Below are positions 50,190-60,927 of a stretch of 64,000 nt of DNA, piece after piece (position 1 is the stretch's first letter; each line of letters opens with the position of its first letter). Location: assembly GCA_012813795.1 (NCBI GenBank), contig GCA_012813795.1_4087.1. One strand, written 5' to 3'. This stretch comes from a phage. The notes below the pieces were generated by a model that searched no databases, had not been told where the DNA came from, and saw only the letters and a program-made list of their open reading frames with translations. Both the position numbers and the translations under genes were made by a program.

Positions 50190-50229
50190 TGAAATAATTA
50201 TAACAAAAAGGGCCGACCGAAGTCAACCC
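50190..50229 (-). terminator. fused terminator-promoter module (minus RNA hairpin GGGUUGAC-UUCG-GUCGGCCC, U-run, then -10 TATAAT)
   Basis: Hairpin 50210-50229 just 3' of gene 50236..52155; TTGACT in the 5' arm sits 17 nt before gTTATAAT, upstream of ATG 50168. Confidence 0.6.
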
Positions 50230-50235
50230 TTTTGT

Positions 50236-52155
50236 TTAGTTTTGTTTCACCCCACCCCATTTTTCATAGATGGCAATAATTTTATCTATGTTGTTTGGTG
50301 TAGTTGTTTCAGTATACCCGTCTGGCATTTCTTGTTTAGTTAAAACACCTTTACCAAATCGTTTCTTACATTCTTTTTCAGCCTGTTTACAATCACCATC
50401 AGTATTAAAGAAGAATGTATGTGATGATACAACTTCAAATTTACAGCTTTTATTTTGGCTTTTATGTCGAGTACCTTTATTTTTTTCTATACCATATTTT
50501 ATTGCAATAGGGATGTCACCATCTTTAATTATATTAATATAAGCATATTGTTGGGTATATCCAACTTCATGTGAGTGTCCACTTTTACGGTCAACATGTG
50601 CATACGGTGTTGTAAAAAATTCACCATATTCGGGATGAATTATACACACATTAGTTGCTGTGTTAATATATTCTACTTTAGAATAATCATACAAATCACC
50701 ATGTACTTCTTTGGCTTTTTTAATGAAATCTTCTTTATTTTTAAATCGTAATCTACAGAATGGGTGTTGTCCCCCTTTTAAGTGGTGGTAAGGGGATGTG
50801 TGATATTCTCCATATTCTGGGTGGATAATACATACATGGTCATCAATACCAATATATTCTACTTTCGAATAATCATACAAATCACCATGTACTTCTTTGG
50901 CTTTTTTAATGAAATCTTCAGTGCACATTCGGGCTAAATCACTCCTTGATTTTACCCCACGAATTGGACAACCTTGCCCTGATAAATGAGATGATGGTGT
51001 TTGCCAAAATTCACCATACATAGGATCGATGATACATATTTTAGTATTACTGTTAATATATTCTACTTTCGAATAATCATACAAATCACCATGTACTTCT
51101 TTGGCTTTTTTAATGAAATCCAAAGTCGTTCCAGTCCTTTTGTTTTTTAATAATACTTTCGCACGTTTTGGATTATTGGCACCGTTTAAATGATTATTTG
51201 GTGTTTGCCAAAATTCACCATACATAGGATCGATGATACATATTTTAGTATTATTGTTAATATATTCTACTTTAGAATAATCATACAAATCACCATGTAC
51301 TTCTTTGGCTTTTTTAATGAAATCTTTTAATGTTAATTTTACATTTTTAGTTACAATATGCAAATTACATCCAGTTCTAGATAATAAATGATTAACAGGT
51401 GTAATTTCAAATTCACCATATTCATTATGAATCAATGTTACTTTTGTTCGGTAATCAACATAATTTATTTTTGAATAATCATATGTGTTTTTGAATTTCT
51501 CTTTAGATCTTTGTATAAATTCTTCTCTAGAAAGTTTTTGTTTTTCAGTTGTCTTTATTCTACCAGCTTTTGGATGTCCTTGTCCCTTCACATGACATTC
51601 TGGTGTTTGCTTAAATTCGCCAAATTCTGGATGAATTATTAAGACTTTAGTTTTGTAATCAACATAATTTATTTTTGAATAATCATATATGTTTCCATGT
51701 GTTTTTAATGCACGTTCTAAAAACATTTCCTTTGAAATTTTATTTTTTATATTTTTTTCTTTTAATTTATCCAAACCATGTTTTGGATGACCTACTCCGT
51801 TAAAATGATCTCCAACCAAAATCCAATGTTCACCATATACAGGATGAATGATACAAACTTTATTTTTGGAATTTACATAGTTTACTTTTGAATAATCATA
51901 CAAATCACCATGTACTTCACTAAATTTTTTCAATACACTTTCTTGTGTTAATTTTTTATTCTTCTTTCTGGATGGATTGTTTGAACCGTTCAAATGGTTA
52001 CCTGGAAGCATCCAAAATTCTTCATTACGTTCAATATCAATTATGCATATTTTTTGGGCGTGGTTTGTATATTCAACTTTAGAATAATCATACATGTCTC
52101 CATGTATTTTTTTAAATTCTGTAATAATACTTTCGGTTGACCACTTTTTACGCAT
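50236..52155 (-). CDS. repeat protein: eight tandem ~60-aa modules (HGDLYDYSKVEY...C.IIHPEYGEF...P..HL.G)
   Basis: 639 aa; modules 5-8 nearly identical even at nucleotide level; function not recognised with confidence. Confidence 0.65.
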   Translation of the reverse strand: MRKKWSTESIITEFKKIHGDMYDYSKVEYTNHAQKICIIDIERNEEFWMLPGNHLNGSNNPSRKKNKKLTQESVLKKFSEVHGDLYDYSKVNYVNSKNKVCIIHPVYGEHWILVGDHFNGVGHPKHGLDKLKEKNIKNKISKEMFLERALKTHGNIYDYSKINYVDYKTKVLIIHPEFGEFKQTPECHVKGQGHPKAGRIKTTEKQKLSREEFIQRSKEKFKNTYDYSKINYVDYRTKVTLIHNEYGEFEITPVNHLLSRTGCNLHIVTKNVKLTLKDFIKKAKEVHGDLYDYSKVEYINNNTKICIIDPMYGEFWQTPNNHLNGANNPKRAKVLLKNKRTGTTLDFIKKAKEVHGDLYDYSKVEYINSNTKICIIDPMYGEFWQTPSSHLSGQGCPIRGVKSRSDLARMCTEDFIKKAKEVHGDLYDYSKVEYIGIDDHVCIIHPEYGEYHTSPYHHLKGGQHPFCRLRFKNKEDFIKKAKEVHGDLYDYSKVEYINTATNVCIIHPEYGEFFTTPYAHVDRKSGHSHEVGYTQQYAYINIIKDGDIPIAIKYGIEKNKGTRHKSQNKSCKFEVVSSHTFFFNTDGDCKQAEKECKKRFGKGVLTKQEMPDGYTETTTPNNIDKIIAIYEKWGGVKQN

Positions 52156-52384
52156 TACTTAAAACTCCTTTCCAGTACTGAACCCGTCCAGCACCATTAA
52201 TCTTAGCCTGAATCTTATCTTTTTCGACAAGACCTTCTTTGTAATCTATGGACGTATTATCGCACTGAATTACATCTAAGTCAAGTACTTCTTGTGTACT
52301 TAATGAAGTATTGTCTGCAATTTGTTGTAAAGTAATTATATCAGTACCGAAGAATTCTGCTAAACGTATAAAAGATAGTTTCAT
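52148..52384 (-). CDS. hypothetical small protein
   Basis: 78-aa ORF behind a terminator-promoter module. Confidence 0.5.
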   Translation of the reverse strand: MKLSFIRLAEFFGTDIITLQQIADNTSLSTQEVLDLDVIQCDNTSIDYKEGLVEKDKIQAKINGAGRVQYWKGVLSNA

Positions 52385-52404
52385 GTATTACCTCTTGAGT
52401 TGAT

Positions 52405-52444
52405 GAAATGATTATAGCAAAAAGGGCTGACCGAAGTCAACCCC
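52405..52444 (-). terminator. fused terminator-promoter module (UUCG-tetraloop hairpin, U-run, TGcTATAAT)
   Basis: gggctgaccgaagtcaacccc at 52424-52444; extended -10 at 52411-52418 on the minus strand. Confidence 0.6.
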
Positions 52445-52449
52445 TTATA

Positions 52450-52677
52450 TCATTTATTGTTGTATTCATACCAACACAGTTTAATATTATATACCAAATC
52501 CTCATAATCACTACATTGCACTATCCATGAATATTTTTCGTCAAATGTATATTTGGGTGAATTAATCATCCATCTTATAGATGCTTTTGTTTTATCAGGA
52601 TTAAATTTATACGTTTCGCGTGACTTGTATGAATCAAGCTTCGCAATCGCATATTTTTTGAATTCTTCATCATTCAT
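52450..52677 (-). CDS. hypothetical small protein
   Basis: 75-aa ORF; start overlaps the denV stop. Confidence 0.5.
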
Positions 52678-59426: not shown

Positions 59427-59447
59427 TTACTCGTGTCCATCAGACTA

Positions 59448-59711
59448 TTAGAATTGAATAGCAATACCTTTAGATGTAATTTCAAACGTACAGTTGTAGC
59501 GAGCCGCCATATCAATATACATATGTTCAGAATACCACGGAACGTTGATATCCGGTTGATTATCATATACCAGGCAGTCATTGTCACCAATGTGCTCGAC
59601 TTTAAATGGGACACCCATTTCAGTTAAAAACAACTCAGCACCTGGTGTGCGACGAAGGAACTCCACATCATCACGCAGACGAAAACCATGATAGTTCAAT
59701 TTCAGTTTCAT
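59448..59711 (-). CDS. hypothetical small protein
   Basis: 87-aa ORF. Confidence 0.5.
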   Translation of the reverse strand: MKLKLNYHGFRLRDDVEFLRRTPGAELFLTEMGVPFKVEHIGDNDCLVYDNQPDINVPWYSEHMYIDMAARYNCTFEITSKGIAIQF

Positions 59712-60101
59712 TTAATCCCCTATTGAATAGTTGTTCATTTGTGCAATTATGTTCATTATAACACAAATAACGTACAAGTCGAACTTTATTTTGTTGTGAT
59801 TAATTACACTATTATCGGGTACATACCCAACACACTCCACTGTGTATTCAAGGAATGATAGTTCAGAATCATCTGAATCTATATCTGCCTTAATGAAGTA
59901 CTTTAAATGTGGATGTGTATTAGTGTATGAACTTAAAATCTGTTGGAACTTGTTTCGTAGTTCACGAGTTAACTTTATGTAATCTTCATCGTCACGTTGG
60001 TCGAAATACGGATCTTGTGGTATCTCATAACTCAAGAACTTTGCAAATCGTGTTGATGTTTTATTCATATGCCATCTCTTCCTTATTAAATCTTGTAGCA
60101 C
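59712..60101 (-). CDS. hypothetical protein
   Basis: 129-aa ORF; start may be internal. Confidence 0.45.
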   Translation of the reverse strand: MLQDLIRKRWHMNKTSTRFAKFLSYEIPQDPYFDQRDDEDYIKLTRELRNKFQQILSSYTNTHPHLKYFIKADIDSDDSELSFLEYTVECVGYVPDNSVINHNKIKFDLYVICVIMNIIAQMNNYSIGD

Positions 60102-60501
60102 GAAATTCTTCTTTAGCTTCCTTTACTGACATAATACGAAGTAGTTTTGCACTACCATAATAGTACTGCACTTGGTTATGTCCAATGTCTACATGGTTAT
60201 CTGGAACTTCATACACAAAAACAGAAAATCCTGAACGATGAAGTTTACCTAAGTCCATTGTAAAGAATCTGAACAGGTCGTTTAAACTTTGGCATCCAAA
60301 TGCCCAGCCACGCTTTATAGAATAAATTCCATCGTCGGTGGGTTCTGGTTGAAATTGTGTAGGTGTGGTCATACACAAACGTTCAAATCCATTTTTAGTA
60401 CTGTATCGCGAAGAGTACCGTGCGAACGGTCCTACTGTTTTTGCAGGATCTAAGTTAGGTTCAATATAACTGAATTTAAGTTCAAAACGATATACATACA
60501 T
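60061..60501 (-). CDS. hypothetical protein
   Basis: 146-aa ORF. Confidence 0.5.
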   Translation of the reverse strand: MYVYRFELKFSYIEPNLDPAKTVGPFARYSSRYSTKNGFERLCMTTPTQFQPEPTDDGIYSIKRGWAFGCQSLNDLFRFFTMDLGKLHRSGFSVFVYEVPDNHVDIGHNQVQYYYGSAKLLRIMSVKEAKEEFRATRFNKEEMAYE

Positions 60502-60527
60502 AATTAAAATCCCCAGTAGTAGATGAA

Positions 60528-60562
60528 ATGATTATAACAAAAAAGGCTGACCGAAGTCAACC
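60528..60562 (-). terminator. fused terminator-promoter module
   Basis: aggctgaccgaagtcaacct hairpin at 60544-60562 plus attataac. Confidence 0.55.
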
Positions 60563-60778
60563 TTTATTTTGAAGTTCTTGAACTAATTGTCGTACTTCTT
60601 TGATGTTACGACACTGCTTTACAGTGAAGTAATCATACTTACGACCATAGGTTCTTGGGTCATCACCTTCCATATACTGCTGCACATCAAAGATTTGTAA
60701 GTAGGGATGCTGTATAACACGAATGTTATCACATTGATAAATCAACATATGTTTAGTCCTCATATTTACACAAGCCAC
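60557..60778 (-). CDS. hypothetical small protein
   Basis: 73-aa ORF. Confidence 0.5.
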   Translation of the reverse strand: MACVNMRTKHMLIYQCDNIRVIQHPYLQIFDVQQYMEGDDPRTYGRKYDYFTVKQCRNIKEVRQLVQELQNKG

Positions 60779-60927
60779 CGAATGTTGCCTGTTTTGCTGC
60801 CTTACGCATCATCACAAGTTTAACATACTGTTCGCCATTACTTTCTTCATATACATCAACTTGAAGAAATGCAAGCATATTGGGATCAGTATAACAAAAA
60901 AGGCTGACGTTAGTCAACCTTTTTTAA

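Follow-up and report, generated by a model that had tools for sequence, protein, structure and literature searches.

A 64,000-nt contig from a phage genome (GCA_012813795.1_4087.1; its full length is referred to here as the window) carries twelve copies of an intergenic cassette of ~50 bases in which an intrinsic terminator and a σ70 promoter are very probably combined in the same DNA on the minus strand, after the manner of the promoter-early stem-loop (PeSL) cassettes of T4-like phages. Eight copies lie at 50.2–60.9 kb and four at 8.9–17.8 kb. The window belongs to an Asteriusvirus, a jumbo coliphage of the 121Q/RaK2-like type; its bases 50000–61000 are 97% identical to Escherichia phage A4 across 74% of their length, and 86–89% identical to 121Q, PBECO4, G17, Sharanji and other Asteriusvirus genomes. 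The A4/121Q/G17 group consists of RaK2-like jumbo myoviruses with genomes of ~350 kb.

Read on the minus strand, the cassette has the general form A-run, GGGTTGAC-UUCG-GUCAGCCC, U5G, TATAAT, and the consensus A-run, GGG-TTGAC-TTCG-GTCAG-CCC, TTTTTG(C/T), TATAAT. The −35 element TTGACT is made up of the five final bases of the 5′ stem arm and the first base of the loop, and the U-run occupies the promoter spacer, its terminal G providing the TGn of an extended −10 (TGnTATAAT). The copies at 8.9–17.8 kb represent the same hairpin-promoter with one additional stem pair. A search with GGGCTGACCGAAGTCAACCC at up to three mismatches gave 10 plus-strand matches against 0 expected from 100 shuffles, and reading the minus strand around every GTCAACC added two further, degenerate copies at 57887 and 60901. 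The count agrees with an earlier reading of this DNA made by a model from the letters alone (the sequence-only reading), which had placed eight copies between minus-strand genes at 50190–60925 and four related elements at 8.9–17.8 kb. The loops proved less uniform than that reading had stated: UUCG, ascribed to each of the eight, caps five (C-G closed, hence the canonical cUUCGg), the remaining three being UUUU, AUAA and UAAC, and UCCG, ascribed to the related set, is found in three copies and replaced by UUCG in the fourth.

A σ70-like promoter (TTGACT or TTGACA, a spacer of 16–18 nt, and TATAAT, TATTAT or TATACT) can be recognized in 11 of the 12 copies, the exception being 57887, which has no −10. 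The placement of TTGACT 17–18 nt ahead of a T(G)nTATAAT box, as had been proposed, holds for six of the eight copies at 50–61 kb, in which 18 nt separate the −35 from a TATAAT or TATACT with TGn; it does not hold for copy 59192, with a spacer of 16 nt, or for copy 57887, where TATTCT stands at the −10 position and TATAAATA is found instead. At 8.9–17.8 kb the spacer is 17 nt and the −10 is TATTAT. The hexamers agree with the consensus at 10–12 of 12 positions (at least 11 in six of the seven σ70 copies at 50–61 kb), and TGn and an upstream A-tract are present in most copies. Across the window, the pattern TTGAC-N16-19-TAnnnT occurs at 41 sites on the minus strand versus 3 on the plus strand. 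When 5,426 complete E. coli genomes were searched with a 46-nt cassette query, nothing matched, indicating that the cassette is not a host repeat.

The fold-energy calculation that had been suggested as a check of the hairpins bore them out. All 12 fold as predicted, with minimum free energies between −13.9 and −21.3 kcal/mol (51-nt segments; z relative to shuffles, −3.5 to −6.5), and 0–2 of 200 shuffles fold as stably as the real segments. The stems comprise 8–13 bp, with pairing between the A-run and the U-run extending them to 11–13 pairs. Conservation of pairing was assessed in 75 distinct copies, taken from phage contigs as well as the window and defined by the inner stem plus the −10 alone; 97.3% of cells are paired and 21 double-sided changes were observed versus 4.4 in shuffles (none of 500 shuffles attained the observed figure), the informative positions being outer pairs 3 and beyond, as some copies were retrieved with the inner seven pairs fixed. 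The third outer pair, which the retrieval patterns left free, is GC in 58 copies, AU in 10, UA in 2, GU in 4 and unpaired in 1.

The hairpin is also strand-specific. The first T of TTGAC pairs with G as a G·U wobble, which renders the sense RNA more stable than the antisense RNA, by 3.4–9.5 kcal/mol. Among the viral sequences of IMG/VR, 39 loci (56 matches) have the wobble form GGTTGACTTCGGTCAGCC (GTCAG) and 5 have the perfect palindrome, ending in GTCAACC, so that the wobble is preferred by ~11:1. Were the palindrome perfect, a TTGAC would also arise on the other strand and face an AT-rich tract, and we infer that the wobble would suppress such an antisense −35. Among loops other than UUCG, 9 of 39 copies have GNRA (binomial p = 3e-6), a count that drops to zero on reading the loops as reverse complements; the enrichment of UNCG and GNRA loops is thus limited to the sense orientation. 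UNCG loops cap 9 of the 12 window copies, and it is on these 12 and on the non-UUCG subset that reliance is placed, the statistics of UUCG itself being biased by a first search with an exact pattern.

It could be supposed that the inverted repeat acts in DNA instead, as an operator or cruciform over the −35 through which a dimeric phage or host regulator shuts the early promoters, and both the centring of the near-palindrome on the −35 region and the existence in the window of a second promoter class, with palindromic AGTACT boxes resembling protein sites, would suit such a role. Covariation, wobble preference and sense-only loop enrichment weigh against it, however, in that the outer stem positions vary in sequence and keep their pairing, the perfect palindrome is avoided in favour of a pair that forms in sense RNA only, and the variable loops are drawn from RNA tetraloop families in that orientation alone; moreover, a U-run follows every time. 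Action as a DNA site is accordingly considered extremely unlikely. The fold energies, the covariation, the wobble preference, the strand-specific stability, the loop bias and the position after stop codons point to a predicted terminator that would operate at the RNA level on the sense strand. A tool scan placed five of the eight copies at 50–61 kb among the terminator-like sites of 46–64 kb, and orthologous hairpins in the GenBank record of phage G17 are annotated as ARNOLD terminators, and as terminators only. In no part of the window did an Rfam 15 family attain its gathering score, and with the limit set to E ≤ 5 for 8–28 kb nothing matched the cassettes or the leader motif described below.

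Every cassette is intergenic, lies between minus-strand open reading frames (ORFs) and is co-oriented with the genes. The upstream stop codon is 7–22 nt ahead of TTGAC or, in copy 60560, is the TGA of TTGACT itself. Downstream, six copies are followed by an ATG preceded by a Shine-Dalgarno (SD) sequence 26–34 nt past the −10, two by a start at 8–9 nt, and four by a longer leader. The 12 copies are confined to blocks of small minus-strand ORFs at 1–28 kb and 46–64 kb, and no cassette was found in the 28–46 kb block, presumed to be plus-strand. This strand map (minus at 1–28 and 46–64 kb, plus at 28–46 kb) was drawn from GC skew and from ORF lists covering 5–29 kb and 49–62 kb, the plus assignment of 28–46 kb being from GC skew. 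The annotated starts at 59156 and 60878 (−), which are those 8–9 nt past the −10 of modules 6 and 8 (numbering as in Table 1), have no SD, and these two promoters would yield transcripts with little or no leader. A hammerhead-like CUGAUGAG..GAAA string in the 5′ untranslated region following module 1 was dismissed, its stem II amounting to one base pair and the string being the SD region.

Module 5 departs from the other copies. It retains the hairpin and the U-run, but has TATTCT at the −10 position, overlapped by TATAAATA, the consensus of T4 late promoters. This octamer (57867–57874, minus strand) occurs once in 64 kb versus 13.3 ± 3.5 expected, and the gene that follows encodes a 516-amino-acid virion structural protein (phrog_20398, E = 6e-189). 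Such strong avoidance elsewhere, together with a sole copy before a structural gene, suggests that TATAAATA is the late promoter of this phage. In CBB and GAP32, which are related phages, structural genes are preceded by a similar motif, ATAAATA (PMC5259590). Module 5 can be read as a putative terminator hairpin joined to a late-type promoter, the hairpin having apparently been retained as a terminator ahead of a late gene located within the early block. The presence of the hairpin and TATAAATA where there is no σ70 −10 indicates that the hairpin is separable from the σ70 promoter.

The cassettes extend well beyond Asteriusvirus. The 46-nt query detected 311 phage records with a cassette, which include Asteriusvirus, RaK2-like Klebsiella phages, Eneladusvirus (Yersinia, Serratia, Erwinia), GAP32, Vibrio phages KVP40 and nt-1, and phages of Aeromonas, Cronobacter and Pectobacterium; in Vibrio phage nt-1, AAAAGGGTTGAC-AGAT-GTCAGCCCTTTTTTGTATTAT is found after rIIB. 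Pairwise BLAST of 48–63 kb against A4, G17 and 121Q placed homology-block ends on cassettes at 52454, 53172, 56246, 57912 and ~60872, a coincidence that was scored without a control against other intergenic sites, and one more block end falls at 55328, on a hairpin-less promoter. The slot at 53173–53832 contains in this phage a 188-amino-acid ORFan (no PHROG match) and a 17-codon hydrophobic ORF (MEIVLIVAFVTLVCTTI); its place is taken in G17 and 121Q by an unrelated ORF of 270 nt, and in A4 the slot is essentially empty (deleted). In A4, module 3 shows a mismatch in the stem, the loop UUCA and loss of the TGn. It is plausible that conserved cassettes would act as homology patches for the exchange of gene cassettes between related phages.

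Identical or near-identical cassettes in phages without other DNA similarity, the block ends that coincide with cassettes, and the PeSL mini-circles reported by Arbiol et al. (2010; PMC2839356) could be taken to mean that the cassette is a by-product of spread, a selfish or hitch-hiking unit copied by recombination whose regulatory effect is secondary. That the cassette is mainly such a by-product is very unlikely, since all copies run in the direction of the genes, occupy precisely the gap from a stop codon to an SD or start, and keep all the promoter and terminator features, with no terminal repeats, target duplications or recombinase; convergence could also yield a σ70 consensus, a GC clamp and a stable tetraloop. 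Spread is in any case compatible with a terminator-promoter function and does not exclude it.

Between modules 1 and 2 lies a 639-amino-acid ORF (50236–52155, minus strand) for an HNH/homing-type endonuclease (phrog_681, phrog_559). No DNA match to the central part of this ORF, 50718–52152, exists in A4, which suggests that the gene is mobile or fast-evolving.

For the composite terminator-promoter the following mechanism is proposed. The transcript of the upstream early gene would form a hairpin of 8–13 bp, usually capped by cUUCGg or cUCCGg and followed by U3-5G, at which E. coli RNA polymerase should terminate a few bases past the upstream stop codon. The identical DNA would serve as a strong σ70 promoter of the next gene, with the 3′ arm and U-run as its 16–18 bp spacer and the final G of the U-run giving the TGn before TATAAT, and the upstream A-run would both pair with the U-run and occupy the position of an UP element. 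New transcripts would start ~7 nt past the −10 and hence lack the hairpin, and the outcome would be a chain of insulated early units of one to four genes each. In lacZ fusions from RB49/phi1, termination by PeSL stem-loops was approximately equal to that of rrnB T1, and PeSL promoters were so strong that −35 or −10 mutations appeared in most clones, according to Arbiol et al. (2010; PMC2839356). The sequence-level evidence and these reporter tests together support the terminator-plus-promoter function that the sequence-only reading had put forward, and by analogy we infer that termination and initiation would occur at the cassettes of this phage.

Several points weigh against this interpretation. 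The U-run is short, with 5 U at 50–61 kb and 3 U before GC at 8.9–17.8 kb, so that termination may be partial; the 18-nt spacer is one base over the optimum; the inner pairs of the covariation set were in part fixed by retrieval, as stated above; and the literature searched contains no mapping of RNA 3′ or 5′ ends for this phage or any Asteriusvirus. In addition, the sole deletion that can be reconstructed, that of A4 versus G17 at 53173–53832, proceeded via ATAAAG microhomology. Cassette-to-cassette recombination was rejected as its cause in view of the two ATAAAG repeats, adjoining the cassette, that were used, and a role of the cassettes in shuffling is therefore circumstantial.

The shortness of the U-runs, and stems with merely 8–9 strong pairs, would be expected if the cassettes were promoters only, the hairpin being a 3′-end stabiliser or a leaky attenuator with read-through into long early operons. 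This is unlikely, as the hairpin and U-run pass two independent terminator predictors (the tool scan and the ARNOLD annotation in G17), the A-run/U-run extension gives stems of 11–13 pairs, the hairpin is kept before a late gene that has no σ70 −10, and comparable PeSL stem-loops terminated strongly in reporters (PMC2839356).

Beyond the composite terminator-promoter, it may be speculated, with considerable doubt, that the cassette is a zero-distance hand-off device, in which a recycling RNA polymerase reinitiates without dissociating, and further that it is a single homologous unit spreading horizontally. The hand-off is raised by the location of the RNA release point inside the next promoter: a terminated polymerase that stays on the DNA would already sit on the next −35/−10, and would serially fire the chain of early genes. 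Horizontal spread would entail that large, unrelated phages of gamma-proteobacteria have one unit in common down to almost every base, the G·U wobble that removes an antisense −35 included.

Table 1. Cassettes (modules 1–12), the late-type element and the leader motif in the window; all coordinates are those of the window.
Feature	Position (strand)	Elements	Context
Module 1	50197..50234 (−)	A-run; hairpin GGGTTGAC-TTCG-GTCGGCCC 50229–50210; TTTTTGT; −10 TATAAT 50202–50197	Between HNH-endonuclease ORF (stop 50238) and 256-amino-acid ORF (ATG 50168)
Module 2	52411..52448 (−)	Hairpin GGGTTGAC-TTCG-GTCAGCCC 52443–52424; TTTTTGC; TATAAT 52416–52411	Next ATG 52384, SD GAGG
Module 3	53140..53177 (−)	Hairpin 53172–53153; TTTTTGC; TATAAT 53145–53140	Upstream of denV (ATG 53111); upstream edge of hairpin, 53172, is the border of variable slot 53173–53832
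Module 4	56248..56285 (−)	Hairpin AGGTTGAC-TTCG-GTCAGCCT 56280–56261; TTTTTGC; TATAAT 56253–56248	After stop codon of 516-amino-acid structural gene
Module 5	57867..57911 (−)	Hairpin GGGTTGAC-TTTT-GTTGACCC 57906–57887, A/U-extended to 57911–57882; no σ70 −10	
Module 5, late-type element	57874–57867 (−)	TATAAATA	27 nt ahead of virion structural ATG 57839
Module 6	59165..59200 (−)	Hairpin GGGTTGAC-ATAA-GTCAGCCC 59195–59176; TTTTG; TATAAT 59170–59165; spacer 16 nt	ATG 59156, 8 nt past −10
Module 7	60531..60568 (−)	Hairpin AGGTTGAC-TTCG-GTCAGCCT 60563–60544; TTTTTGT; TATAAT 60536–60531	Stop of upstream ORF is TGA within TTGACT
Module 8	60888..60925 (−)	Hairpin AGGTTGAC-TAAC-GTCAGCCT 60920–60901; TTTTTGT; TATACT 60893–60888	ATG 60878, 9 nt past −10
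Module 9	8906..8945 (−)	Hairpin GGGATTGAC-TCCG-GTCAGTCCC 8938–8917; TTTGC; TATTAT 8911–8906; spacer 17 nt	
Module 10	11982..12021 (−)	Sequence identical to module 9; hairpin 12014–11993; −10 11987–11982	
Module 11	15291..15330 (−)	Sequence identical to module 9; hairpin 15323–15302; −10 15296–15291	
Module 12	17750..17789 (−)	Hairpin GTGGTTGAC-TTCG-GTCAGCCAT 17782–17761; compensated U-A outer pair; TATTAT 17755–17750	
Leader of module 9	8795..8905 (−)	Motif CCCACAGGGTG 8884–8874 ... GTGTATCTA	Second promoter follows at 8792
Leaders of modules 10–12	11945–11955, 15259–15269, 17713–17723 (−)	Motifs equivalent to module 9 leader	
Leader motif elsewhere	24808–24818 (−); 23170–23180, 26621–26631, 26836–26846 (+)		

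The four copies at 8.9–17.8 kb are accompanied by a further conserved sequence, gatacac..gcaccctgtgggct on the plus strand, which the sequence-only reading had taken for an upstream motif of the cassette. In the direction of transcription it lies downstream of the promoter and is a separate element. On the minus strand the motif reads CCCAYAGGGTGC ... GTGTATCTAT, within the transcribed leader, and a fuller version is CCCAYAGGGTGC ... GTATCTAT ... AGTACTG. It is independent of the hairpin, being found also after the hairpin-less σ70 promoters at 24874 (−), 23113 (+), 26565 (+) and ~26780 (+). Among 69 instances of the AT-rich motif from the window and phage contigs, most are 21–30 nt past a σ70 −10 and a few, in unrelated contigs, have no upstream promoter; many have a GC hairpin and T-run ~95 nt from the start and no ORF. 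Many copies also have a short first hairpin of varying stem (GACG/CGTC, AGACA/TGTCT, GGC/GCC, AGTC/GACT). RNAalifold, applied to 23 and then 7 leader sequences, returned an invariant CCC/GGG mini-hairpin and the terminator, with no supported consensus fold beyond these. The motif probably represents a leader or small-RNA family that acts at the RNA level and is distinct from the terminator/promoter. At 23113–23250 (+), a promoter, the motif, a GC hairpin and a T-run follow one another without an ORF, and the unit 23148–23250, which is convergent with gene 23248–23499, is a candidate small RNA of ~100 nt. In related jumbo-phage contigs, convergent pairs of leader-motif promoters ~170 bp apart flank the palindrome AATGATAATCATT, which has a Fur-box-like core (contig L047, 2825–2837 and 8083–8095; L080, 915–973; L176, 6094–6106); this palindrome is absent from the window.

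Two other kinds of repeated promoter element were detected. The second promoter class mentioned above has palindromic AGTACT boxes immediately ahead of both the −35 and the −10, and AGTACTGNATAAT at up to one mismatch occurs 36 times in the window versus 1 expected (for example 11062–11074, 14438–14450, 16618–16630, 18217–18229, 27532–27544 and 55301–55313, minus strand); the boxes look like putative binding sites for a regulator of early transcription. Family D1, a minus-strand cassette of ~67–80 nt with 13 copies (sites include 8311–8377, 9182–9248, 10482–10548, 11830–11896, 15678–15744, 17598–17664 and 18186–18252), has the order (AGTACT) TTGACA or CTTGCA, spacer, TATAATGTTTTACAT, a hairpin GGGGAGAACCATTTCCCC in the 5′ untranslated region, SD and start. 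It resembles the PeSL subclass with a stem-loop downstream of the −10, and because no T-run follows, its hairpin is probably a 5′ stabilising hairpin.

The GC content varies between 31 and 41% in the window, and a tRNA scan across it found none. At 46115–46145, where the plus- and minus-strand gene blocks converge, there is a classical symmetric terminator, AAAAAAAGCCCAC-TTATT-GTGGGCTTTTTTT, which in contrast to the fused cassettes has no overlapping promoter. The segment 26280–27660, ~1.4 kb without a convincing ORF, contains divergent promoters, many CAGTACT and CATCCAG boxes and the iteron-like repeats TAGCCGTC and CAGCCATCTAG (three times at 27040–27110); it immediately precedes the switch in GC skew and gene orientation near 28 kb and may be a replication origin or control region. 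At 21221–21303 (−) a sub-threshold Rfam match to CyaR/RyeE spans the full model (37.7 bits against a gathering score of 47; E = 1e-5 when 300 nt were searched); the alignment takes in the terminator hairpin and the AAUAC..AACCA stretch but not the first stem, and the match overlaps the 3′ end of ORF 21271–21678.

If the cassettes function as proposed, the PeSL concept is extended from T4-like phages to the RaK2/121Q jumbo phages, in what would be the cleanest version of the design, the entire −35, spacer and TGn being reused as stem, U-run and U-run end. The annotation of these genomes of ~350 kb, most records of which list no promoters, would improve, and the cassettes would delimit early transcription units and flag likely points of accessory-gene exchange. 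They would also offer synthetic biology a compact, portable insulator-plus-promoter part and, should the hand-off prove true, a natural test bed for recycling termination.

With the intrinsic terminators of E. coli the cassettes share a GC-rich stem, a stable tetraloop, a 3′ U-run, an upstream A-run able to pair, and a position after stop codons; they differ in that the 5′ arm and first loop base double as a −35, the U-run is inside the spacer, and this U-run is shorter than the textbook one. TTGACT, the 16–18 nt spacing, TGnTATAAT, the A-tract at about −40 to −46 and a CAT-type start region are likewise those of the strong σ70 early promoters of lytic coliphages, except that in the cassette the −35 and spacer are constrained to fold as a hairpin in the upstream RNA. 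In recycling termination, or facilitated reinitiation, an E. coli RNA polymerase that has released its transcript remains on the DNA and begins a new one from the closest promoter (Kang et al., 2020; Harden et al., 2020; both cited in the review PMC11347151). A hairpin terminator very near the next promoter is common to both, as a mechanistic analogy only, whereas in the cassettes the distance from terminator to promoter is zero and the release point lies within the promoter.

The closest parallel is to the PeSL cassettes, which were defined in RB49/phi1 by Arbiol et al. (2010; PMC2839356), who distinguish five subclasses, including those with the stem-loop overlapping the −35 or between the −35 and −10, to which the present cassettes are alike. 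As in the PeSLs of RB49/phi1, PST/T4 and nt-1/KVP40, an intergenic cassette of ~50–100 bp has the order stop codon, AT-rich tract, σ70-like −35/−10, stem-loop (here a predicted terminator), SD and start, and occurs in many copies among small non-essential early ORFs. The published PeSLs adjoin indels or replacements between close relatives, as the present cassettes may. For nt-1, Comeau et al. (2014; PMC4122927) describe PeSLs with the stem-loop A3-4G3-loop-C3T3-4 and the promoter TTGYVH-N17-TAWWAT; this stem-loop consensus is matched here, nt-1 carries the core GGGTTGAC-N4-GTCAGCCC, and those of its stem-loops that are paired with a non-early (middle) promoter parallel the TATAAATA copy. The differences are that PeSLs were described in Straboviridae, a family to which the Asteriusvirus host of these cassettes does not belong, that the overlap is here fixed and as full as it can be, the stem containing the −35, the U-run forming the spacer and its terminal G supplying the TGn, and that the cUUCGg tetraloop and conserved G·U wobble are not encountered in the accessible parts of the PeSL papers. 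The literature search returned no description of PeSLs for RaK2/121Q-like phages: promoters and terminators go unmentioned in the RaK2 and Sharanji genome papers, and those on PA5oct and CBB list σ70-like promoters and ARNold terminators separately, with no fusion. The design involves no new principle and is the published PeSL architecture, of which the cassettes are a new example in a phage group for which it had not been described.

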